A stretch of DNA of 64,000 bases from a virus: positions 1-64,000 of the IMG/VR virus record IMGVR_UViG_3300017917_001573. One strand, given 5' to 3'. The notes under the pieces were generated by a model. It had not been told where the DNA came from. It was given only the letters and a program-made list of their open reading frames with translations, and made no database searches. Below are positions 1-63,481 of the stretch, in pieces. Numbering within the stretch: the first letter of the stretch is position 1; each line of letters begins with the position of its first letter. Position numbers and translations under genes: made by a program.

Positions 1-179
1 CCAGGATCTCCTTCCTCAATGACTTCAAGAGACCATACTTCTGAATCAATATAAAATGATCCAAAAGTACCGTCTGAATTCTTTGGTAGTGATTTACCAA
101 AGACACCTAAGAAATCATCAGAGTCTACGAGGTAGCAATTACCGCTTACGTAGATAGCTTCCTGATGTGTATGTAACAT
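1..179 (-). CDS. Hypothetical protein, partial (runs off left edge)
   Basis: Read manually: ATG at 179, open to position 1 (MLHTHQEAIYVSGNCYLVDSDDFLGVFGK...), A/T-rich upstream, co-oriented with 339..770. Confidence 0.65.
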   Translation of the reverse strand, partial: MLHTHQEAIYVSGNCYLVDSDDFLGVFGKSLPKNSDGTFGSFYIDSEVWSLEVIEEGDP

Positions 180-300
180 AAAAATAGAGTTAATGAATAA
201 AAATTAGTACAATGTAGCGACATTGTGGTACACTCTTCTCATCGCTTGAGAGAGGTTCTTTGACAACAAGTATAAGTCACTATGGTGTCAAAGGATAATT

Positions 301-340
301 AAAGAATAGCACACTATGAAAATAGTGTGCTATATTCTTT
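301..340 (-). terminator. Long hairpin directly after the stop of 339..770; probable terminator or processing stem
   Basis: AAAGAATAGCACACTAT-GAAA-ATAGTGTGCTATATTCTTT inverted repeat. Confidence 0.6.
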
Positions 341-770
341 ACTTCTGAGTAGCTACCAGATTTGTATCTACACAAGCCCAATAAACCTTGGAACCTGTGG
401 AAGTCATCATGTATTTGCCGTCGCCATCAGGTTTAGAGCTTCTAACTTGAAACTCAATTGTTTGTCCCTCTGTAAGTTCAACATTGGACGACACCAATTT
501 AACGGGTTTTTGTTGTCCGTCAAACTCAACAAGTCCACAAGCCTTTTCAGTGGTAACTGCAAAAGTAGTTCCATCAGTTCGGGTTTTTACCTCACCCTTA
601 ACCGATTTTCCCATACCGAGGAATCGACCTTTGTAGATTTTCACCTCAATTCCATCAGATGTGGTATGTTGCGAAATTGGTTCACCCAATTCCGCAACAC
701 GTGCAAAAGGTGCTTCCAATAAACCAAAGGGTTGAAATGTTTTTGCTTCAATTTTTGCTTCACCAGCCAT
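339..770 (-). CDS. Hypothetical protein (beta-rich, possibly OB-fold-like); first gene of leftward block
   Basis: 143-aa ORF with ATG start and A-rich leader; the overlapping + ORF looks like shadow. Confidence 0.75.
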   Translation of the reverse strand: MAGEAKIEAKTFQPFGLLEAPFARVAELGEPISQHTTSDGIEVKIYKGRFLGMGKSVKGEVKTRTDGTTFAVTTEKACGLVEFDGQQKPVKLVSSNVELTEGQTIEFQVRSSKPDGDGKYMMTSTGSKVYWACVDTNLVATQK

Positions 771-860
771 TTTAATAAAATTTTAAGTTAAACGAAATTT
801 AGCTAAACAAAGAGTCCAATACATTCTTTTTAGAAAATTTCTTTTCTGAATAAGTATGTA

Positions 861-1190
861 GGGGAACCCCAGGTCAGCTATTTGCTGCGGGGTGTTTTTA
901 TGTGGGGTCCTCCCATCACACGTCATTACACAAAAAAATTTTTAGAAAAAAAAATTTAAAAAACATCCTTAACTCCCACCTCTCAATACCCACCTTTTTA
1001 ACTCAACCCTACTAACTCAAACCTATATACTTAAGTATATATTACTATACTGAGTAAATATTTATAACCTATTGAGTCATAGTTTTTTACAAGGAAGCAA
1101 AATGAACTTTTTGTACTTTTTAACCCTGTTTTATACTAAAAAGTACGATACAGTGAACTTTTTTATTTTCCCATACTAAAAAATATTTTT
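861..1190. other. Strand-divergence region with GC hairpins, C-rich tracts, palindrome and short repeats; candidate origin or genome-terminus region
   Basis: ACCCC...GGGGT and GTGGGG/TCCCATCAC stems (861-920); perfect 18-bp palindrome TATATACTTAAGTATATA 1024-1041; TAACTCAA x2; TGAACTTTTT x2; GTACTTTTT/AAAAAGTAC inverted repeat. Confidence 0.4.
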
Positions 1191-1199
1191 TAAAAATAG

Positions 1200-1229
1200 T
1201 TGCATACTAAGAAACCTTTCGTATATTTG
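1200..1229 (+). promoter_or_regulatory. Bacteroidota sigma-A type promoter P1
   Basis: TTG at 1200 and TATATTTG (-7 TAnnTTTG) at 1222-1229. Confidence 0.65.
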
Positions 1230-1231
1230 TA

Positions 1232-1355
1232 AGGCAATCTATTGCACAGTTCAATGAGTTCCTGGTTACTTCATTTAAAATTATTAACCAGTGTTTTTTA
1301 AAAGAGACTTAATTACGTTAAGTAATCTGTCTAAGAGGGGAAACCCTCTTTTTTT
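1232..1355 (+). ncRNA. Candidate small RNA (or 15-aa peptide mRNA)
   Basis: Bounded by promoter P1 and a terminator; stems GCAAT/ATTGC, CTGGTTA/TAACCAG, AGAC..ATTAC/GTAAT..GTCT. Confidence 0.5.
1333..1355 (+). terminator. Intrinsic terminator
   Basis: AAGAGGG-GAAA-CCCTCTT followed by T run. Confidence 0.85.
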
Positions 1356-1371
1356 AAAAAATAAAAAAATG

Positions 1372-1402
1372 TTGTGTATAACAAAAAAGATGTGTATCTT
1401 TG
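1372..1402 (+). promoter_or_regulatory. Bacteroidota-type promoter P2
   Basis: TTG at 1372, TATCTTTG at 1395-1402. Confidence 0.65.
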
Positions 1403-1404
1403 GT

Positions 1405-1760
1405 GCAACTCTGACAGGTTAAACAACATAAAAAAAAATATTAAGGACAACCCCTTAGTTTTAGTAGTATGTTGTTTAACTTAGTCAGAGGTTAAAATAA
1501 GATTCTCCTAAAAAACTAAGGGGTATTTTATTTTACGGTGTAGGAGAATCACTGGTAAAATAAACATCTGAACTTGTATACTACAATATACTTGGATCGG
1601 GTAAAATAAATCCCTTGTAGATAGCATTAGATTTTCTGATTTTTTAGTGACTGTAATGACCCCAACTAATACACTAATACAACGGTACAACTTACCACAT
1701 AGAGCTTGGTAAACTCAATTTTAAAATCAGCAAGGGGTCGAAATTTCAAAAATCTACCAT
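1405..1760 (+). ncRNA. Candidate large structured RNA / attenuator with kissing-loop or alternative pairings
   Basis: Perfect complementary pairs 1409-1415/1484-1490, 1418-1430/1468-1480, 1450-1462/1512-1524, 1501-1510/1541-1550, 1527-1536/1555-1564, 1636-1643/1723-1730, 1658-1663/1734-1739, 1628-1635/1749-1756; no substantial ORF. Confidence 0.6.
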
Positions 1761-1795
1761 AAGTTATAGCTCAATTTATTTTTTAGTATACAAGA

Positions 1796-1827
1796 TTTGT
1801 AGCATACTAAAAAAACGTGTATATTTG
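1796..1827 (+). promoter_or_regulatory. Bacteroidota-type promoter P3
   Basis: TTTG 1796-1799, 20-nt spacer, TATATTTG 1820-1827. Confidence 0.75.
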
Positions 1828-1845
1828 TATTCTAAATAATTCAAT

Positions 1846-2073
1846 ATGGAAGAACTAACATATGGACAAAAAGCTGTAGGAATTAAATTTAATCCTGGAC
1901 AGCTAAGTGAAGTAGATGTATGTAAACAACGATTTGCAGATCTAATTGATATGATGAATGATCTCAGGAATACTACAAAATCAATAGAAACAAAACGACT
2001 ATGTAGTATTGCAATTACAGAATTACAAGGATCACAAATGTGGGCAGTAAAAGCTATAACTTGGAAAGATTAA
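1846..2073 (+). CDS. Acb2/Tad1-hairpin-like small protein, candidate anti-defence nucleotide sponge
   Basis: VGIKFNP...KQRFADLID...RLCSIAITELQGSQMWAVKAIT resembles the helical-hairpin family related to Acb2/Tad1. Confidence 0.6.
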   Translation: MEELTYGQKAVGIKFNPGQLSEVDVCKQRFADLIDMMNDLRNTTKSIETKRLCSIAITELQGSQMWAVKAITWKD

Positions 2074-2098
2074 AAAAATAGTTTGATAAGGTTTAGGT

Positions 2099-2123
2099 AA
2101 GAGGTGTTTATCACCTCTTTTTT
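2099..2123 (+). terminator. Intrinsic terminator
   Basis: AAGAGGTG-TTTAT-CACCTCTT + T run. Confidence 0.8.
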
Positions 2124-2124
2124 A

Positions 2125-2158
2125 TTGTATACAAGTTTAGTAGATGTGTGTATCTTTG
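2125..2158 (+). promoter_or_regulatory. Bacteroidota-type promoter P4
   Basis: TTG 2125, TATCTTTG 2151-2158 just before ATG 2163. Confidence 0.6.
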
Positions 2159-2162
2159 TGAT

Positions 2163-2648
2163 ATGAATAATCCTTTTGTAGTAGGTGAGAAAATAGAGTT
2201 GATAAGAATTGGAAGAACTAAGTTTATTTCCAATACTAAAAGTGATGGTGTACAAACACTCAACCACTCCTATACTACAATTAGAGACAATGTATTTATT
2301 GATAAGGATTCAAGAGTTTCTTTGTATAAACCAACTGATTTAAGGAATTTATTTTGTTCTTTTAATGGTGTTACATTAAAGTTGTATGTGTATATTGCAT
2401 TGTCTTTACAAAAGGATTGTGATTATGTAAAAGTAGATTCTAAAGATTTTATGCTTAGGTCAAATGTTAAATCAAAAAGCTCATTTTACAAAGCTATAGA
2501 AGAATTAGAAACATACTCTATCATACTAAAAAAAGAGAAGAATTATTATTGGGTAAATCCATTTTTGCTTTTCAATGGTAATAGAGTTGCCTACTTCCAA
2601 ACTAATTATCCTGAACAGATAAGTATAGTGGCAACAATTAAAAAATAA
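2163..2648 (+). CDS. RepL-like winged-helix replication/maintenance protein
   Basis: C-terminal SFYKAIEEL...YWVNPFLLFNG motif typical of RepL family; ATG 2163 preferred over GTG 2148, which overlaps the promoter. Confidence 0.65.
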   Translation: MNNPFVVGEKIELIRIGRTKFISNTKSDGVQTLNHSYTTIRDNVFIDKDSRVSLYKPTDLRNLFCSFNGVTLKLYVYIALSLQKDCDYVKVDSKDFMLRSNVKSKSSFYKAIEELETYSIILKKEKNYYWVNPFLLFNGNRVAYFQTNYPEQISIVATIKK

Positions 2649-2651
2649 AGT

Positions 2652-3299
2652 ATGAACAAACCAAAACCAAATGGACCTAAAAATCCCATTAAGAAGTTTG
2701 AGGCAATCTTGTCTCCAGAACAAAAGAGTGCTAAAGCTATAATTTATGCTAACAAAGTTACTGTACTAAAAGGTAAGGCGGGAACAGCAAAATCTTTTGT
2801 AGCATGTAATGCAGCATTAGATATGTTGAGTAAGAAACAAGCAGATAAGATTTACATTATTAGACCTGCTGTTGCAATTGAGGATTTAGGTTTTCTTCCT
2901 GGTGATATTAATGAAAAACTAGGACCTTATTTTATTCCTATTTTTGAGAATTTGGAGAAGCTAGAAAATAAAGAAAAAGTGGAACAGTATTTGAAATCAG
3001 GTACTATTACAATTGTTCCCGTTGCTTTTATACAAGGAATGACTATTGATACAGTAGCTATTGTTGATGAAGCACAAAATATTACAGAACAACAAATGAA
3101 GATGTTGCTTACTAGATTGGGTAAACAAGGTAAATATATTATTACAGGAGATACTGATCAAGTAATGCTTAGTAAAAATGAAGTGTCGGGATTTGAAAAA
3201 CTTCTAGCATTAGAAAATAAAATTGATAACTTTGCAGTAGTAGAACTTCTAGAGAATAGAAGGGATCCGTTTGTAAAAGATGTATTAGAAAAATGGTAA
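2652..3299 (+). CDS. phoH: PhoH-like ATPase
   Basis: GKAGTAKS, RPAV, GFLPGD, DEAQN, TRLG, GDTDQ motifs. Confidence 0.95.
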   Translation: MNKPKPNGPKNPIKKFEAILSPEQKSAKAIIYANKVTVLKGKAGTAKSFVACNAALDMLSKKQADKIYIIRPAVAIEDLGFLPGDINEKLGPYFIPIFENLEKLENKEKVEQYLKSGTITIVPVAFIQGMTIDTVAIVDEAQNITEQQMKMLLTRLGKQGKYIITGDTDQVMLSKNEVSGFEKLLALENKIDNFAVVELLENRRDPFVKDVLEKW

Positions 3300-3577
3300 A
3301 ACCAGAAGTACCTCTGTTAGTAGAGGATAAAATAGAAGCTCTTTTAAAGAAGTTTGATTTAGGGGAGTATATACAAGATGAAAGATTAGTTAAGCTTTTA
3401 TTCAATGTATACTGCCAAGCGCAATTAGATTTTATTAATGAACATGTAGATGAATTTACTACACATACAGGAGCATTAACACAAGTCCACATACTACAAA
3501 TGATGGACCATTTAAATAACACTGAAACCTTATTTTGTAAAAATTATAAATCAAATTTTAAAGATGATACTCATTAA
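3293..3577 (+). CDS. Hypothetical protein
   Basis: 94-aa ORF overlapping neighbours in operon. Confidence 0.7.
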   Translation: MVKPEVPLLVEDKIEALLKKFDLGEYIQDERLVKLLFNVYCQAQLDFINEHVDEFTTHTGALTQVHILQMMDHLNNTETLFCKNYKSNFKDDTH

Positions 3578-3920
3578 ACTAAAAACACATTTTATTCCAG
3601 CTAATGCTTGTGAAGCATTGAATGAATTATGTAATACATTAGAAGAAGAACATGATCATTCCCAAATTGGTAAAAGTAATCCTATTCCATTTGATCCATA
3701 TACTAATAAAGAGTATTTACATCACTTGGATGAATGTGTTGAAATCAAAGAATTGTATCATAATCTAGAAGGTCATATTGTACAAGAAGTATATTCTATT
3801 AAATACAAAAATAGAGATTGTACAAAAATCTGTTTTACAGATATGACAGATCTAGTTATTGAAGAATCTATTGATGATGTAATTGCTAAATTTAAACAAG
3901 CAGGATATACAATTGTATAA
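3564..3920 (+). CDS. Hypothetical protein
   Basis: 118-aa ORF in operon. Confidence 0.75.
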   Translation: MILIKLKTHFIPANACEALNELCNTLEEEHDHSQIGKSNPIPFDPYTNKEYLHHLDECVEIKELYHNLEGHIVQEVYSIKYKNRDCTKICFTDMTDLVIEESIDDVIAKFKQAGYTIV

Positions 3921-3970
3921 TTTGCTATATTACAACAAGACTAGGATTTAATCATTTTAGGTTAAGTATT

Positions 3971-3996
3971 AAAGGGAGATTCACTAATCTCCCTTT
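3971..3996 (+). terminator. Hairpin/terminator overlapping a downstream -7 promoter element (TATCTTTG 3996-4003)
   Basis: AAAGGGAGATT-CACT-AATCTCCCTTT. Confidence 0.7.
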
Positions 3997-4020
3997 ATCT
4001 TTGTAGTATATATCAAACAA

Positions 4021-4350
4021 ATGGAAAATAAAACGTTTAAAAAAGAGGTTGAGAGTGTTAGAGAGGTGTTTCTCAAGATTATCTTTAGAGGATATTTAGG
4101 GTACACTATTTCTGATTCTCAAATTAAGGTTCTCTGCGAGTTGATGGATAAACCTTACCATACTTCAAATCTAAACGAGTTGGCGGTAAAAGTAAATCTT
4201 TCTGAACAAGTAGTTAGAAATATTCTCTCAAAGTTTAAGAAGAAAAGAATTTTAGATGTGATCAATGGAAATTACACTATTAACAAATTTCTTAATATCT
4301 TTGATGAAGAAATTAGTTTAACATTTGTTTTAAAGAGAAAAGAAAAATGA
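4021..4350 (+). CDS. Winged HTH DNA-binding protein
   Basis: ELAVKVNLSEQVVRNILSKFKKKRIL..NGNYTIN HTH-wing pattern. Confidence 0.7.
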   Translation: MENKTFKKEVESVREVFLKIIFRGYLGYTISDSQIKVLCELMDKPYHTSNLNELAVKVNLSEQVVRNILSKFKKKRILDVINGNYTINKFLNIFDEEISLTFVLKRKEK

Positions 4351-4709
4351 TTGAATATGATGTGATCAACAAAATGACTTCTTGTAGAGTTGGTAAAGAC
4401 GTTGATGAGGTTAAGTTTATTATGAACACTTACTGGAACAACATCCAAAAGGTTTTGTCTAGTGGTGATGCATCTGTAATAAACATTCCTAATTTTGGGA
4501 AATTTAAAATTGCATACAGCCAATTACACAAAGAATTTGCAAAGAAGAAACGAGTTGCAGAACAATCTATTGTAGTATACAATGACCATCCTAGTGAATA
4601 CAACAAAAATAAGATGGAAACTTGTATTGCTGCATACGAAGAAATTCTAAAACGATTTGTAGAAAAGTATGATGTAGAATATATTCAAAATGAAAAAAAG
4701 AAAGATTAA
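4347..4709 (+). CDS. HU/IHF-like DNA-binding protein
   Basis: VINIPNFGKFKI motif; IHF-like genes are typical of crAss-like phages. Confidence 0.65.
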   Translation: MIEYDVINKMTSCRVGKDVDEVKFIMNTYWNNIQKVLSSGDASVINIPNFGKFKIAYSQLHKEFAKKKRVAEQSIVVYNDHPSEYNKNKMETCIAAYEEILKRFVEKYDVEYIQNEKKKD

Positions 4710-4977
4710 CATTCGTCAAATCTTAGAAGGTTGGGGTAATGAAGTTCTAGACACATTTGATGCACTAGACCCAGAAATTAAACAACTATCTAAAGACAGA
4801 TTAGAGATTTGTATGTCATGTCCTTTACGTACTCATAGCACATGTGATGTGAATAAAAGCATCATCATTGACAATGTAGAATATTATGGTTGTGGTTGTT
4901 ATTTACCAGCTAAATCAAAATGTGTAGATTGTGAATGCCCTGCTAATAAATGGGGAGGAAATGAAAGTAAAGATTAA
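4690..4977 (+). CDS. Small Cys-rich Zn-binding phage protein
   Basis: RLEICMSCP...C...GCGCYLPAK...CPANKW. Confidence 0.75.
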   Translation: MKKRKINIRQILEGWGNEVLDTFDALDPEIKQLSKDRLEICMSCPLRTHSTCDVNKSIIIDNVEYYGCGCYLPAKSKCVDCECPANKWGGNESKD

Positions 4978-5152
4978 TTGGCATGAAATAGAAGAACTAT
5001 CTGATCTATTAGAAGTGTTTAGTTTAATGTTTAACGGATTTGTAGTATATGATGATGTTAAACAAAAAGAAATAATCAAACAAATTAAAGCGTATAACAA
5101 GAAACACAAAACAAAAGTTGTGTTTGAAATTGAAACAAAAAATGGAAATTAA
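4961..5152 (+). CDS. Hypothetical protein
   Basis: ATG 4961, overlaps both neighbours. Confidence 0.6.
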   Translation: MKVKINWHEIEELSDLLEVFSLMFNGFVVYDDVKQKEIIKQIKAYNKKHKTKVVFEIETKNGN

Positions 5153-5528
5153 ACCACACAATGATGTAATTCTATTGGAATTACCTAAAGAACTAAAAGC
5201 AGTTATTGAATCAATTGATAATTCGACTATTGTTGTATCAGAAGATACATTAAACGAACGTAAACAAGAAGCAGTAAGAAAATTTTATGAAAATTCTGGA
5301 GTATTTACAGTTCATTCAGTAGGTCCGCTTGTAGAAGGTATTGTTAAAGGTGATAGAATCGTAATTGATGGTGATCCTTCTCAAGTATCTTTTTATCACG
5401 ATGGAAAACTAGAAATTTATTTTCGTATTAAATCTTATCAAGTAGATGCTGTAATTACAGGTCTTATTGAAAAAGAAGTTATTCGTAAAAATACAACTGC
5501 AACAAAGAGCGGTATTCTACTCTCTTAA
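5142..5528 (+). CDS. GroES-like (Cpn10) co-chaperonin
   Basis: IKPHNDVILLE...VHSVGPLVEGIVKGDRIVI pattern. Confidence 0.6.
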   Translation: MEIKPHNDVILLELPKELKAVIESIDNSTIVVSEDTLNERKQEAVRKFYENSGVFTVHSVGPLVEGIVKGDRIVIDGDPSQVSFYHDGKLEIYFRIKSYQVDAVITGLIEKEVIRKNTTATKSGILLS

Positions 5529-5550
5529 CCCCCTTTTAAATTTGATCCAT

Positions 5551-5820
5551 ATGAGCGTTCAGTTACAATTACAAACAAAAATTCTAATGGTGTTGCAGGA
5601 CATTGCCAATGAAACAAAAGGGGAACCTTTGTACATGCATTTACAATTGGCTTTTTCTGAACGCTCATTGGATTCTATTTCTGGAGATAAAGACTTGTAT
5701 GACATTCTTTTATACTACAGAAGTTTGGTTGAATTAAACAACCAAAAACATTTGCAGGATCCATTTGGAGATGAGCCAGATGATGATTATAGTTCGTTAG
5801 ATGATGATTTTACATACTAA
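5551..5820 (+). CDS. Hypothetical protein with acidic C-terminus
   Basis: ATG 5551; stop abuts next start. Confidence 0.7.
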   Translation: MSVQLQLQTKILMVLQDIANETKGEPLYMHLQLAFSERSLDSISGDKDLYDILLYYRSLVELNNQKHLQDPFGDEPDDDYSSLDDDFTY

Positions 5821-6363
5821 ATGTTTACAATACAACAAAACTCTGTAGTATTAGATCAACATGTATTTATAGTACCTGAATACAAAGCTGTTATGGAAAC
5901 ATACGGTGATTATGGTATTCAGGTATTTAAATACATTTATATGAGATATGACTTTAGAGTACCAGGATATGCAAATCTTTCAGAAGATGAAAGAGAAAAA
6001 GTTTGTCAAAAAGACTTTAATGTAAAAGAAGATGATTCTCCAGTATTTGAATCAGACTGTCCTATTATTAAGGCAGCTGTAGTCAAATATAAAGAGTTAC
6101 AAGAAACACCTTCTATGCGTTTGTTTTTTGCTGCTAAAAAATCTATGGAACAATTAACTAACTATTTAGATAGTTGTGAAATAGATCCTTATTTAAGTAC
6201 AAGAGATAAAACATCAGAAATTAAAACATTAACGGATACACAAGTTAAGATTGCATCCATTGTAGATTCATACAAAAAACTTGAAACACAAGTTAAAATG
6301 GAAATTGCACAAGGTTTAGCAAGAGGTAATGCGTATGTATCATCAAGAGAAATACCGAAATAA
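5821..6363 (+). CDS. Conserved crAss-like protein, putative terminase small subunit
   Basis: Helical protein just upstream of TerL; function inferred from synteny. Confidence 0.5.
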   Translation: MFTIQQNSVVLDQHVFIVPEYKAVMETYGDYGIQVFKYIYMRYDFRVPGYANLSEDEREKVCQKDFNVKEDDSPVFESDCPIIKAAVVKYKELQETPSMRLFFAAKKSMEQLTNYLDSCEIDPYLSTRDKTSEIKTLTDTQVKIASIVDSYKKLETQVKMEIAQGLARGNAYVSSREIPK

Positions 6364-6749
6364 TGGAAAAAAGAAATATAAATACAGTAGTAAATATGTT
6401 CTTGTCAGAACTATTTGCATTTAGAAATGATGTTCATTTGGCACATTTGAATGTACATGGACCAGCTGCACATGCTGCACATATTGCGTTAAACGAATTG
6501 TATGATGCAATTTTAGAGTTTGCTGATGAATTAGTAGAAACCTATCAAGGACAATATGGGTTGTGTGATTTAACTATTCGGTCATCTAATACTTTAGTAT
6601 GTAAAGATCCATGTCAAGTAGTAGAAAAAATTATTCAATTTGTAAATACAAATAGAGCATGTTTTATAGATAGTCACCTACAAAACATTGTGGATGAACT
6701 AATTGCTTCTGTATACAAAGTATATTATAAACTAGAAAACTTGAAATAA
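6363..6749 (+). CDS. Ferritin/Dps-like protein
   Basis: HLAHLN..G..AHIALNELYD....DELVETYQG four-helix pattern. Confidence 0.8.
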   Translation: MEKRNINTVVNMFLSELFAFRNDVHLAHLNVHGPAAHAAHIALNELYDAILEFADELVETYQGQYGLCDLTIRSSNTLVCKDPCQVVEKIIQFVNTNRACFIDSHLQNIVDELIASVYKVYYKLENLK

Positions 6750-9700
6750 TGCAAATTTGGAGTGGATATGACCCAATAGATGATTGTGATCTACATTTAC
6801 TTAAACAGTATAAAGATGTAGATTATACTCCTGGGAAATATAAATGGTCTAAAACTAAAGAATTTTCTGTAGTAGGTAGAAGGTTTCAACTTACTGGAAA
6901 ATACTGTGATTATATGGAAGGTTCTCCTGCCTATGATGAATTCTGGGATATGGAAGAATATAAAATTAAGCATGGTATGATTAATAGTGATGGGCATTAT
7001 ATATGTGGTCCAATGTACTCCTATTTGAACTATGGTATCATTTATGATAAGAAACAAAAGAAATCTATTCAACCTGATTTTTGGGATTCTGATGCATACT
7101 TCTGGATAGAAGATTTAAAATCTGAAGTAAGAGGTGTGATGCTAGGTGGTACAAAAGCTCGCCAAAGAGGATATTCTCTAAAAGGAGCGCATAAAGTTAT
7201 TTTAAAATTTTATCACGTACCAAACTCCATTTCTTATGTTGGTGCATATATTGATGATAAAGCATCTAAGTTTTGGGAAATGGTTGAAGCAAATGCTAGA
7301 CATTTAGATTTAAATACTCCGTGGCATAAAAATAAAACCCCGTCTACAAAAGAATTTTGGAAAGCTCAAGTACAAGTAACTGAAGATACTGGTAAAAAAG
7401 TATTTAAAGGTTATATGTCTGAGTTTCATAAGGTTACATTTAAACAAAGCCCATCAAGTGGGGTAGGTGGGGCGTGTCATGGAAAAGACACCAAAATTGT
7501 TATGTCTGATGGGACATTAAAAAATGTACAAGATATAAAAGTAGGAGAATATGTAATTGGCGAAGATGGTAAACCTAAAAAAGTTTTAAATTTATTTTCT
7601 GGGCAAAAAGAATTGTTTTTAGTAGAACAAATAAAAGGTCAATCTTTTACAGCAACAGGTGATCATTTATTGTATTTAAAAAACAGAGATGTAAAAACTT
7701 CAGATGATTTTTTTACAGTACAAGTAAAAGATTGGAATAATTTATCCGATTGGAAAAAAACGGTTTACGTTCAAGTAAAAAATAGAACAGTTATACCATT
7801 TTGTAATATTGATCCAACAATTGATCCTTATTATTTAGGGTTATGGTTAGGTGATGGATTTAGAGATTCAATGCGCATTATTGTAAATAAAACAAAAGAC
7901 ATTGAAATATTCAATTACATCAAATCCTTTTTAGGTGATTATTCTTTGTATACAAGAAAAGAGGTAAATCGTTACAATGACGAAATGTATATAATGGGTA
8001 GTAAAATATCTATTGATCGTGAAGACACGCCTCTGTTAAAAGAATTTATAAAGTATAATTTGTTTTATAATAAACACATTCCTAAAGAAGTATTTAGTGC
8101 TTCTCCAGAATATAGATTAAACGTATTAGCGGGACTAATTGATTCTGATGGATATTTAAATAGTGTCAACTCATATGAAATATCCTGTAAAAGCGAGGAA
8201 TTGGCTAAACAAATTAAACTATTAGCTGGTGGATTAGGAGCATATGGTAATATATCAAAAAGAAGAAACAAATCTGGAATGTCTTCTCCAGATAGCATTT
8301 CACATGTTGTAAGATTTTATTTTACAGAACAAATAGTACCATGTTTATTGCCTAGAAAAGTAAACACATACAAAAAAGTAAAAGACACATCATCATCACC
8401 TATAAAAAGTATTACATCAATTGGAGTAGATAATTATTATGGTATTGAAGTAGAGGATCATTTGTATTTCTTAGAAGATTATACACTGACTCACAATTGT
8501 GACATGTTTGTATACGAGGAACCTGGTTTATCACCTACTTTAATGCAAACAATCAAGTATCTAGAACCCGCAATGTCAGATGGTGATTATAGAACTGGTC
8601 ACTTATGGGCATTGGGTTCAGTAGGGGAATTAAAAGATTCTAAAGACTTAGAAAAAATTGTACGTTCACCTAAAGACTATGGTTTTGCAGAATTTCCAAA
8701 TAATTTTGATCCTAAGAAATCAAATCCACCTTGCGGTTGGTTTCACCCTGCATCATGGTCCTATAAAGGGTATATTGATGAAGAAGGTAATTCTGATGTA
8801 GAAGGTGCAACAAAACGTATTTTTGAGAAACGTGATAAAGCAATTAGACAATCACCTAAAGATTATATTCTTGCAATTACACAAGATCCATTGACTGTTG
8901 ATGAAGCATTCCAAGCAAGGGATGTAAATAAATTTCCTGTTAAACTTATTTCTAAACGTTTAGCAGAATTAGAAGAATCTGGATTTAGAGGAACCTATGT
9001 CGATTTACAATTTGGTAAAGACGGTATTGAATGGGAATTAAGTGAAGACTATCCTGTTACAGATTTTCCTGTAAAAGAACATTCATACAAAAAAGGTTGT
9101 ATAGAAATATTTGAGTTTCCAGATATAACATTATCATTTGGTACATATGTTGCAGGACTTGACCCTTATAAGTTTGATGAATCAAAATATTCAGATTCTA
9201 TTGGATCTATTTATATATACAAAAGGACAGTAACATTAGAAGGTTCTTATCAAGATAGAGTTGTAGCATGTTATCATGGTAGACCAGATAACTTGGATAT
9301 ATTCTATGATAATATTGAAAAACTTGTAAAATTCTACAATGCACAAGTATTGATAGAAAATGATGTCAATGATATTATCCGACATTTCCTACAAAAAAAC
9401 CTACACAAATACTTAGCTAAAACACCAGGTTGGATTAAAGATGTAGCAAGTAATACATCTGTAAATACAGAATATGGTATTCGAGCTACTGTAAAAAATA
9501 TTGAACACTTTGAAAATTCTATTATCAAATATTGTATAGATGAGATTGGATCTCGTTTTTCAGAAGATGGAAAAGTGTCTGTACCTATTTATGGTGTAGA
9601 AAGAATTGATGACAAAATGCTATTGATAGAATTATTGGCTTATACTAAAAATGGTGGTAACTATGATAGGATACGTTCTTTTGGAATTACTTTAGCATTT

Positions 9701-16507: not shown

Positions 16508-17209
16508 ATGATCAATATAGTTGAATTTTCTAAAAGTATAGATGAAACATTAAATAAACTTGGTACAAACAAGAATTTCAATGTATCTATTCCTGCTAAA
16601 GTTAGAGCAATTAATCTTGCTCAACTAAAACTTATTAAAAATAAGTTAGGTATTCTGAATCCTTCTAAAAAAGGATTTGAATCTTTTAGACGTAGATTTG
16701 ATGAATTGGATTTTCTAATTGTTCCCAATAAGGAGGTATCTGTACAAACAATAGATGATTCTTTGTATGCAGATACTTCTTTATTGGAAGATTATATGTA
16801 CTACATCAAATCATATTGTACTGCTACAAAAGGAAAATGTAAGAATAGAAAACTTACTAATCACTTAGTTAATCATAATGATTTGATCAACTATTTGAAA
16901 GACAAAAATTACAAACCTTCTTTTGAATGGGAAGAACAGTATGTAACACTTTCTAATGGTAAATTAGAAATTCACAAAGCGGATGATTATACAGTAAATA
17001 AGCTATACTTGTATTATATACGCCAACCAAAACCTGTTAATCTTAGTGGATATACACAAAATGGCGTAGCTTCACAAAATATTAACTCGGAATTTCCAGA
17101 ATCTCTTAGAGATGAACTATTGGATATGACTTGTCAATTAATCGCTTCTAACAATGTAGATATGGCACAATATCAATTTACAGAAGCAAGAATCTCAAAA
17201 TCTGAATAA
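16508..17209 (+). CDS. Tail ring / head-tail adaptor protein
   Basis: YKPSFEWEE, YLYYIRQPKPV, EFPESLRDEL motifs of crAss ring proteins. Confidence 0.75.
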   Translation: MINIVEFSKSIDETLNKLGTNKNFNVSIPAKVRAINLAQLKLIKNKLGILNPSKKGFESFRRRFDELDFLIVPNKEVSVQTIDDSLYADTSLLEDYMYYIKSYCTATKGKCKNRKLTNHLVNHNDLINYLKDKNYKPSFEWEEQYVTLSNGKLEIHKADDYTVNKLYLYYIRQPKPVNLSGYTQNGVASQNINSEFPESLRDELLDMTCQLIASNNVDMAQYQFTEARISKSE

Positions 17210-63142: not shown

Positions 63143-63481
63143 ATGGAAGAAAAAGATCAACCAGAAGTACAAATGGAAGAATCTACAATGGTAGAAGAAA
63201 ATCCAACTGCTAATACACCAGAAACAGAAGAAGATCCAATTATTGGTTATAATATTGATGATGCAGCTAGTGTTACACTTTCTGGTAAACAATTTAAATT
63301 GTTTAATGCAGCACTTATGATGAGTCAAACATTGATGCAACAATATGTTCAACAACGTTTGATTAACGAAATGCCAGCTCAACAAGAAATGGATGAAGTT
63401 GTAAAGAATCTGAAAAAGATTGGTAAACTAAAACCCATTCGACAATCAGATACAATTAAAAAATCTGAACCAGTTAATTAA
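63143..63481 (+). CDS. Hypothetical protein, last gene of rightward block
   Basis: 112-aa ORF with A-rich leader. Confidence 0.75.
   Translation: MEEKDQPEVQMEESTMVEENPTANTPETEEDPIIGYNIDDAASVTLSGKQFKLFNAALMMSQTLMQQYVQQRLINEMPAQQEMDEVVKNLKKIGKLKPIRQSDTIKKSEPVN

Follow-up and report, generated by a model that had tools for sequence, protein, structure and literature searches.

A promoter-framed, strand-biased cluster of interlocking pairings in a crAss-like phage genome: a candidate bistable RNA element upstream of an Acb2-like gene

The 64 kb of DNA analysed here (the window) are the start of a 94,971-bp IMG/VR virus record, which is linear, 78% complete and has a G+C content of 29.9%. The genome has a crAss-like layout, with two gene arms and giant virion proteins. 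Only one intergenic region is longer than 1 kb, from 780 to 1845, and it is there that leftward genes (339-770 and 3-179) diverge from a rightward gene train; the minimum of the cumulative GC skew lies at about 1100-1300. The rightward train opens with the gene of a small Acb2/Tad1-hairpin protein and continues with that of a Rep-like winged-helix protein, whose family shows sub-threshold similarity to RepL, Rep3 and HTH proteins (best E = 0.003-0.02). The opening part of this train (coordinates of its first two genes in Table 1) also includes a PhoH-like ATPase. No tRNA or tmRNA was found in the window, and the structured region described below contains no protein-coding ORF of note, whether it is read with table 11, with table 4 or with TAG as Q.

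The sigma-A promoters of Bacteroidota, as known from promoter studies in Bacteroides and Flavobacterium, combine a -7 box, TAnnTTTG, with a -33 TTG located about 19-22 nt upstream. Within 780-2300, TAnnTTTG boxes are found at just four positions (1222, 1395, 1820 and 2151), all of them on the + strand, and they partition the region into four cassettes, P1 to P4. No leftward (minus-strand) -7 box occurs in 1019-1900. The promoter that precedes the structured unit, P2, fits the Bacteroidota pattern: a 22-nt spacer separates its TTG from its box TATCTTTG, exactly as in P4, the promoter of the Rep-like gene, and the cores of these two promoters are identical at 13 of 16 positions. There is no further site comparable to this core elsewhere on the + strand of the genome.

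The -7 box of promoter P4 is followed, 4-5 nt further on, by the start codon of the Rep-like gene. In relatives whose Rep-like protein is 45% identical, TATCTTTGGTAC is kept 4 nt ahead of this ATG, and the box of promoter P4 is shared together with its spacing. Such conservation speaks for a functional box, with transcription starting 4-5 nt downstream of it. Applied to P2, the same spacing would place the start at about A1407, and the first base of stem A (1409) comes 2 nt after this predicted start. At its 3' end, the unit is closed by a U-rich tract, AUUUUAUUUUA (1525-1535), in which 9 of 11 positions are U. P2, which the preliminary description had proposed as a promoter, is thus a credible prediction, given its likeness to promoter P4 and the match of its box in distant relatives. 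Transcription itself, both ends of the RNA, its termination and any regulatory consequence are inferred.

An invertible promoter, an idea taken from PMC8375218, was also considered and rejected: 11-bp repeats are present at 1573 and 1784, and the stretch between them (1584-1783) holds no -7 box.

Table 1. Coordinates of the cassettes, predicted RNA features and first rightward genes
Feature	Position	Strand	Description
Cassette P1	box 1222	+	precedes an sRNA-like unit that has a canonical terminator (1333-1350)
Promoter P2	1370-1402	+	Bacteroidota type; -33 TTG 1370-1372; -7 box TATCTTTG 1395-1402
Cassette P2	box 1395	+	followed by the structured unit 1407-1536
Core structured unit	1407-1536	+	putative ~130-nt RNA; spans the predicted start (A1407) through the U-rich tract
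Stem A	1409-1430 with 1468-1490	+	22 bp, bulged A1483, 37-nt loop
Mini-hairpin in stem A loop	1440-1446 with 1453-1459	+	pair probability 0.97
b-left	1450-1462	+	13 nt in stem A loop, complement of 1512-1524
Hairpin 2, terminator-like	1493-1535	+	A-tract 1493-1503, U-tract 1525-1535
c-left (GATTCTCCTA)	1501-1510	+	overlaps 5' arm of hairpin 2
b-right	1512-1524	+	spans loop and 3' arm of hairpin 2; ends immediately 5' of the U-tract
d-left (TTTATTTTAC)	1527-1536	+	is the U-tract itself
c-right (TAGGAGAATC)	1541-1550	+	3' of the U-tract, hence solely in a read-through RNA
d1 (GGTAAAATAAA)	1554-1564	+	complement of the U-tract
d2 (second exact GGTAAAATAAA)	1600-1610	+	46 nt past d1
Cassette P3	box 1820	+	followed by the Acb2-like gene and a terminator (2099-2119)
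Acb2/Tad1-hairpin protein	1846-2073	rightward	75 aa; PF24729, E = 1.5e-9; first gene of the rightward train
Cassette P4	box 2151	+	followed by the Rep-like gene
Rep-like winged-helix protein	2163-2648	rightward	161 aa; weak, sub-threshold RepL, Rep3 and HTH similarity

Interlocking pairings and strand bias

Five perfect pairings that interlock downstream of P2 had been reported, and all of them were found again at the same positions by direct reading, by a repeat search and by an independent scan. Stem A is made of two perfect parts, 1418-1430 with 1468-1480 (13 bp) and 1409-1415 with 1484-1490 (7 bp), which the pairs A1416-U1482 and G1417-U1481 bridge into a helix of 22 bp. Helix b joins b-left to b-right by 13 perfect base pairs, with a duplex energy of -18.3 kcal/mol, and b-right is the sole partner of b-left in the whole genome, even when two mismatches are allowed. 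Helix c (c-left with c-right) is a perfect 10-bp helix of -13.4 kcal/mol. In helix d, the U-tract segment 1527-1536 pairs with GTAAAATAAA at both 1555-1564 and 1601-1610; this segment can also pair, with one G-U, with 1493-1503. Exact GTAAAATAAA sites number five in the whole genome, both strands included, and three of these five are within 1527-1610. In the same way, GGTAAAATAAA is present as two direct copies and an inverted one, all within 84 nt. The long helices are all made of perfect Watson-Crick pairs, which would be equally expected from repeats acting at the DNA level.

It had been argued that such a density of matches is very unlikely to arise by chance, and the counts bear this out. 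Over the whole 94,971-bp genome, a census of perfect inverted repeats (arms of 10 bp or more, gap of at most 150) yielded 71 of them (0.75 per kb). Five of these 71 lie in 1418-1610, and so do two of the six 13-bp inverted repeats of the genome. In 206 nt, the five repeats observed compare with 0.15 expected. Windows of 206 nt with at least three repeats are solely those starting at 1351-1501, all the others containing at most two. When 20,000 Markov-1 sequences were simulated with the composition of the same intergenic region, at least four repeats were reached in two of them and any 13-mer repeat was seen in 0.2%. A dispersed repeat, a MITE and an assembly artefact were also considered: each of the arms is unique in the genome, so that the cluster is neither a dispersed repeat nor an artefact of assembly, and the arms are shorter than assembly k-mers.

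The folding statistics single out the same stretch. On the + strand, RNAfold gives 1407-1536 a minimum free energy (MFE) of -48.4 kcal/mol (z = -8.9, equalled by none of 200 shuffles), against -35.1 kcal/mol (z = -4.3) on the minus strand. The z-score is -6.8 over 1405-1620, and the MFE of 1405-1610 amounts to -61.4 kcal/mol on the + strand and to -45.0 kcal/mol on the minus strand. Further downstream, no structured second domain was detected in 1537-1800, where the nested fold is like that of shuffles (z = +0.5 on the + strand and -0.1 on the minus strand). Thus, the structured unit corresponds to the stretch from the promoter to the U-tract. In a G+C-corrected scan of about 1,900 206-nt windows of the genome, the + strand windows starting at 1301-1401 rank second to fourth, whereas the same windows on the minus strand are absent from the top 12. 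Furthermore, the fold includes eight G-U pairs on the + strand and two on the minus strand. Since a G-U pair becomes a C-A mismatch on the opposite strand, this asymmetry fits a + strand RNA and not a purely double-stranded DNA signal.

The repeats, inverted and direct, may nevertheless be protein-binding or strand-opening signals instead of RNA helices, the region being then part of a replication origin or a cluster of operators or iterons for the Rep-like winged-helix protein. This would agree with the location of the cluster in the only intergenic region above 1 kb, where the gene arms diverge and the GC skew has its minimum, with the weak Rep-type similarity of the 161-aa neighbour, with the perfect Watson-Crick character of the long helices and with the three GGTAAAATAAA copies. 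However, the skew minimum is upstream of the unit, and the arms are interleaved, separated by spacers of 30-50 nt and different in sequence from one pair to the next, unlike those of operators or iterons. As regards iterons, the two exact 11-mers, accompanied by one inverted copy, are 46 bp apart, which is out of helical phase. The strong strand asymmetry of the folding, the G-U bias and the exact framing of the unit by a promoter and a U-tract also argue against a DNA-level element. In addition, the block is missing from relatives that have the same Rep-like gene (see below), which weighs against a conserved origin. Overall, a DNA-level element is considered unlikely.

Competing folds and terminator character

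Stem A and hairpin 2 dominate the nested ensemble, with pair probabilities of 0.996 and 0.89-0.94, respectively, those of stems c and d1 being 0.03-0.04. Forced combinations of stem A with c or with d1 are within 2.5 and 3.4 kcal/mol of the MFE, respectively. Helices c and d1 cross with linkers of 4 nt only, and their coexistence is therefore improbable. Two competitions involve shorter segments. The CCUUAGU of the stem A loop can pair either with 1440-1446, which forms the mini-hairpin, or with 1515-1521, and the AGGGG at 1519-1523 can pair either with CUCCU (1505-1509), which forms the core of hairpin 2, or with 1451-1455 in the loop of stem A.

With respect to stem A, helix b is pseudoknotted. 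The energy of the kissing conformer that contains it was obtained by adding the costs of opening the arms to the duplex energy, tertiary penalties being ignored. Net of these costs and with the tertiary penalty excluded, this conformer is at +0.4 kcal/mol relative to the nested one in the 130-nt RNA and at -2.9 kcal/mol in the read-through RNA, in which 1541-1550 is present; other calculations of this energy came out close to these values. The kissing and nested conformers are thus calculated to be about iso-energetic before any tertiary penalty.

The preliminary description had offered either a kissing-loop architecture or an attenuator in which 1450-1524 folds into one long terminator-like hairpin. 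The first part of this proposal is supported insofar as the 13-bp helix is energetically feasible. The second is not supported: the pairing of the long hairpin exists, but stem A must open for it to form, which is 16-21 kcal/mol uphill and leaves it that far below the stability of the best fold. The long hairpin could form only if some factor acting in trans kept the 5' arm engaged. The preliminary description had suggested a termination assay with and without the upstream sRNA (1232-1355). The predicted pairing of this sRNA with the element is not significant, since 22 of 300 shuffles are as good (p ~0.07 for the whole RNA), and control by the sRNA is not supported. Against the 5' arm, p is ~0.01, a lead weakened by its being one of three sub-regions tested and by the overlap of the pairing with the own terminator of the sRNA.

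Hairpin 2 follows the same plan as the terminators of this phage, with an A-tract, a G/C core and a U-tract, and its energy is -12.4 kcal/mol, compared with -11 to -21 kcal/mol for the ordinary ones. Set beside intrinsic terminators, it combines a U-tract with 9 U out of 11 and a local G/C core of just 5 bp closed by a 9-nt loop, so that it should terminate poorly on its own; a simple terminator scan did not call it. The 13-bp helix b ends at 1524, where it abuts the U-tract, making it the strongest of the stems that could drive release there. As a helix adjacent to the U-tract is present in both conformers, the logic of a switch is not clean. Furthermore, the Acb2-like and Rep-like genes are each preceded by a promoter, P3 and P4 respectively, and a strong terminator separates them, so that their expression does not need read-through from P2.

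Relatives and described systems

The preliminary description had suggested collecting homologues of the element, and the phage, IMG/VR, metagenome and bacterial collections searched yielded none. No DNA match was obtained by blastn against 50,697 phage records, nor any match by exact-pattern scans of IMG/VR for helix b, stem A and the c/b junction. A scan of bacterial-genome contigs gave one match, an unrelated actinobacterial terminator palindrome that has the same 11-mer arms by chance. Anchoring on the Rep-like gene retrieved eight loci from IMG/VR and metagenomes, all at about 45% protein identity. They have no counterpart of 1200-2160, either at this place or elsewhere in their records, and their divergent region is about 300 nt long and carries different repeats. 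These comparisons covered the relatives at 45% identity, the closest Rep-like homologue (66% identity) being carried by a 1-kb Logan contig. The block that extends from P1 to the terminator of the Acb2-like gene has the appearance of accessory DNA, peculiar to this lineage, that was inserted where the divergent control region meets the Rep-like gene.

An orphan sequence of this kind, with no relatives in any searched collection, located in a lineage-specific block where relatives differ and contigs break, might have no present function. It would be a recently acquired or rearranged spacer behind a duplicated promoter, whose repeats may be, for example, small inverted duplications left by the insertion of accessory cassettes; that they are perfect and uneroded fits a recent origin. 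Such a scenario leaves unexplained the occurrence of five different perfect repeats within 130-200 nt past a promoter (two of 20,000 simulated sequences coming near, with at least four), the helix-extending G-U pairs of the + strand and the terminator-style layout of A-tract and U-tract. Furthermore, tblastn found no remnants of neighbouring or related proteins and no trace of duplicated coding sequence. A spacer devoid of function is rated as not very likely.

The Acb2-like gene was also used as an anchor. It is highly conserved and usually belongs to tight operons, the median upstream gap being 28 nt over 80 loci, and no similar RNA was found upstream of it in any of these 80 loci. In three phages with a long gap 5' of the gene, this gap contains tRNA genes. 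The lone blastn match among these loci (E = 0.005) is inside a coding ORF and was discarded as due to chance.

The preliminary description had not recognised the element as a member of a described family, and the comparison with Rfam agrees. When positions 700-2200 were searched on both strands by cmscan against the 4,227 models of Rfam 15, among them antisense and immunity RNAs, riboswitches and ribozymes, with E up to 10, no hit was better than E = 0.5. The best ones, given in bits against the gathering threshold, are MIR9486 (20.1/100), rli51 (19.9/48), Hatchet (16.8/51) and PreQ1 (16.4/39). The PreQ1-I riboswitch was rejected, as the likeness is limited to the A-rich tail AAAAAACUAAGG (1510-1521); the complement of this tail is 50 nt upstream, in the loop of the other hairpin, and there is no P1 helix in register.

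The crAss-like Cellulophaga phage phi14:2 produces abundant, early and persistent non-coding RNAs from long intergenic regions, with no function assigned (bioRxiv 10.1101/2020.03.07.982082). The loci of these RNAs (junctions g004-g005 and g005-g006) and the present one have in common a crAss-like phage, a Flavobacteriia-type host, a long ORF-less intergenic DNA among early genes and the direction of the adjacent arm. The expression of the phi14:2 RNAs was shown, whereas the locus described here is known from its sequence alone. Neither related sequence nor a similar density of inverted repeats was found in positions 1-9000 of phi14:2, in which blastn (word size 7) gave short AT-rich chance matches only.

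In a rival reading, the unit encodes a stable and compact RNA without any switching. A pseudoknotted body acting in trans would then be built from stem A, hairpin 2 (or helix c) and the 13-bp loop-loop helix; it might serve, for instance, as decoy or scaffold within the early accessory/anti-defence region by the Acb2-like gene, or be a substrate for processing of the RNase III type. In its favour, the energy of the kissing conformer is equal to, or slightly better than, that of the nested one, the paired segments tile without overlap, so that several helices could coexist, the 21-nt linker matches the 22-bp stem A in length, the neighbour is an Acb2/Tad1-hairpin protein, and phi14:2 offers the precedent of persistent early non-coding RNAs. 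However, none of the 80 Acb2-like loci has a homologue of the element beside it, helices c and d require sequence located past the U-tract, no target or partner was found, the only complement of the loop in the genome being intramolecular, and the nested ensemble without helix b already accounts for the z-score of -8.9. A non-switching RNA of this type appears improbable.

Functionally, the nearest described logic may be that of P4 immunity. According to a summary of its mechanism (PMC4825925), a short RNA derived from the untranslated leader pairs with copies located upstream and downstream in the same transcript, which leads to premature termination before the replication genes. The P4 CI RNA (with seqA and seqC) and the related c4 antisense RNAs of P1/P7 resemble the present element in the position of an untranslated leader beside replication genes, and their segment with complements on both sides has a possible counterpart here in 1527-1536, with its imperfect complement at 1491-1501 and its exact ones at 1555 and 1601. 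In contrast, the repeated segment is here 10 nt long, AU-rich and doubles as the U-tract, the host phylum and the promoter type are different, the downstream genes own their promoters, and Rfam reveals no match in sequence or structure. The resemblance to replication leaders, put forward in the preliminary description, can be taken as an analogy only.

In the same way, ColE1 RNA I/RNA II and R1 CopA/CopT also present complementary hairpin loops beside replication functions. These pairs consist of two RNAs made from opposite strands, whereas both arms are here on a single predicted + strand transcript. Antisense kissing control of the ColE1/R1 type was rejected on this basis and because the minus strand has no -7 box in 1019-1900. 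Kissing nuclei measure 6-7 nt in the ColE1 and R1 systems, which the 13-bp complementarity found here exceeds. As for attenuators such as those of trp and pyrBI, they likewise have a hairpin and a U-tract shortly past the promoter and segments with competing partners. The present element differs from them in lacking a leader peptide as well as any known ligand or protein, and from a classical antiterminator by its competing long-range helix, which also ends at the U-tract.

A possible mechanism and its significance

The best reading of the locus is an undescribed, promoter-framed, + strand-biased and bistable RNA structure. The observation made in the preliminary description is confirmed, and its interpretation is supported in part. 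What the analysis establishes is the pairings and how rare they are, the restriction of the structure to 1407-1536, its bias toward one strand, the likeness of the promoters and the calculated closeness in energy of the two folds; the non-coding RNAs of phi14:2 provide a precedent. That the region is a transcribed RNA element at all is judged reasonably probable, and this element is probably a small regulatory RNA or a leader. The energy of helix b, close to that of the nested fold, and its end exactly at the U-tract suggest that this helix could set the balance between termination and read-through. A lineage-specific, gene-less transcription unit in which the state of the stem A loop has this role is proposed tentatively, its chances being somewhat below even.

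In such a mechanism, the host RNA polymerase would initiate at P2, at about A1407, and the first 130 nt of the RNA would fold into stem A, as a 22-bp 5' hairpin, and into hairpin 2. This latter, with its short core, would be a poor terminator unaided. The loop of stem A could then zip onto 1512-1524 over 13 bp, forming a helix that abuts the U-tract and causes release at about 1535. The outcome would depend on whether this loop is free or occupied, either by its own mini-hairpin (1440-1459) or by another RNA or a protein. Either a short and stable sRNA (about 130 nt) would result, or read-through toward the Acb2-like and replication genes. In the read-through RNA, c-right, d1 and d2 would pair again with the former terminator arms and thereby lock an alternative fold.

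That the element represents a new switch, with a kissing loop that captures a terminator stem, is a long shot, and equally so that its daisy chain of crossing helices is an anti-defence decoy RNA. Such a loop-capture switch would require the apical loop of the 22-bp hairpin to pair with the nascent RNA just 5' of the U-tract. A host or phage RNA, a protein or a defence-related signal occupying the loop would then tune the production of the sRNA versus read-through into the anti-CBASS-like and replication genes.

As the element is an orphan of a single genome, its value is that of a well-specified experimental target and not of a demonstrated new class. crAss-like phages are among the most abundant known viruses and, to our knowledge, RNA regulators are poorly charted in Bacteroidota. 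The locus offers a compact and sharply defined candidate, with a promoter, a highly structured predicted RNA of 130 nt and two folds calculated to be iso-energetic, flanked by an sRNA-like unit and by an Acb2-like anti-defence gene, upstream of replication genes. An absence of transcription would instead make it an unusual DNA signal marking a strand-switch region. Should it be transcribed and termination be controlled by the loop-loop helix, the locus would provide a simple and mutable model of how RNA controls the dosage of early phage genes in Bacteroidota.

Predicted promoters and the start of the Rep-like gene

The extended promoter motif GTATATTTGTA has exactly three copies on the + strand (Table). 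Since each of the three lies directly upstream of a unit, these sites define a second predicted promoter class, distinct from the promoters P2, preceding the predicted structured RNA, and P4, preceding the Rep-like gene. The -7 box of P4, TATCTTTG, ends 4 nt before the ATG of the Rep-like gene. Both the box and this spacing are kept in IMG/VR relatives whose protein shares 45% identity (loci L003, L004 and L005), which implies that the gene has a leaderless mRNA, conserved across these relatives.

Coordinates of the features (window positions unless a locus is named)
Feature	Position	Strand	Remark
GTATATTTGTA copy	1221	+	directly upstream of the sRNA-like unit
GTATATTTGTA copy	1819	+	directly upstream of the Acb2-like gene
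GTATATTTGTA copy	63098	+	directly upstream of the last + strand gene, at 63143
Acb2/Tad1-hairpin protein, 75 aa (PF24729)	1846-2073	+	family match
-7 box/Rep-like ATG	2151-2165		box-to-ATG 4 nt
-7 box/Rep-like ATG	L003:496-515		box-to-ATG 4 nt
-7 box/Rep-like ATG	L004:134-150		box-to-ATG 4 nt
-7 box/Rep-like ATG	L005:1236-1253		box-to-ATG 4 nt
Perfect 11-bp inverted repeat, CTTGTATACTA/TAGTATACAAG	1573-1583 and 1784-1794		flanks 200 nt

The Acb2-like gene and its neighbourhood

Hundreds of proteins share 60-77% identity with the Acb2/Tad1-hairpin protein; the contigs that encode them are very diverse, Pasteurella and Gilliamella records among them. In the IMG/VR loci retained (80 at most), the gene for this protein mostly belongs to tight operons and the gap upstream of it has a median of 28 nt. 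In all three loci where that gap is long, it contains tRNA genes.

Folding on either side of the predicted structured RNA

The sRNA-like unit behind P1 (1232-1355, +) has a canonical terminator, but with z = -1.6 its whole fold is unremarkable. Within this unit, segment 1317-1338 is loosely similar to the 3' arm of stem A, the 5' hairpin of the structured RNA, and is predicted to pair with 1408-1430 at -16.7 kcal/mol, a value equalled or bettered by 5 of 500 shuffles.

Downstream of the U-tract, the stretch 1537-1800 was scored alone and for nested folds only. Neither strand folds better than its shuffles (z = +0.5 on + and -0.1 on -), a result that bears on the second pseudoknotted domain proposed at 1612-1760.

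Across the + strand of the genome, the 206-nt segment that ranks first for structure (16590-16860, z = -7.8) contains an almost perfect hairpin, roughly 20 bp long, with AAGGAGG in it. The segment sits within a real gene (16508-17209) that has a full-length match to phrog_15924.

Repeats and contig ends upstream of the Rep-like gene

The 11-bp inverted repeat adjoins the -33 element of P3, the promoter of the Acb2-like gene, and a related sequence, TTGTATACAAG, overlaps the -33 region of P4. In the genome, TTGTATAC shows an over-representation of about six times, which makes the significance of this repeat uncertain.

In all three IMG/VR viral contigs carrying L003-L005, the distance from the Rep-like gene to the upstream contig end is 160-1260 nt; in the contig of the window it is 2.1 kb. 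These ends suggest either that the genome terminates in this region or that assemblies break there at a hypervariable or repeat-rich site.
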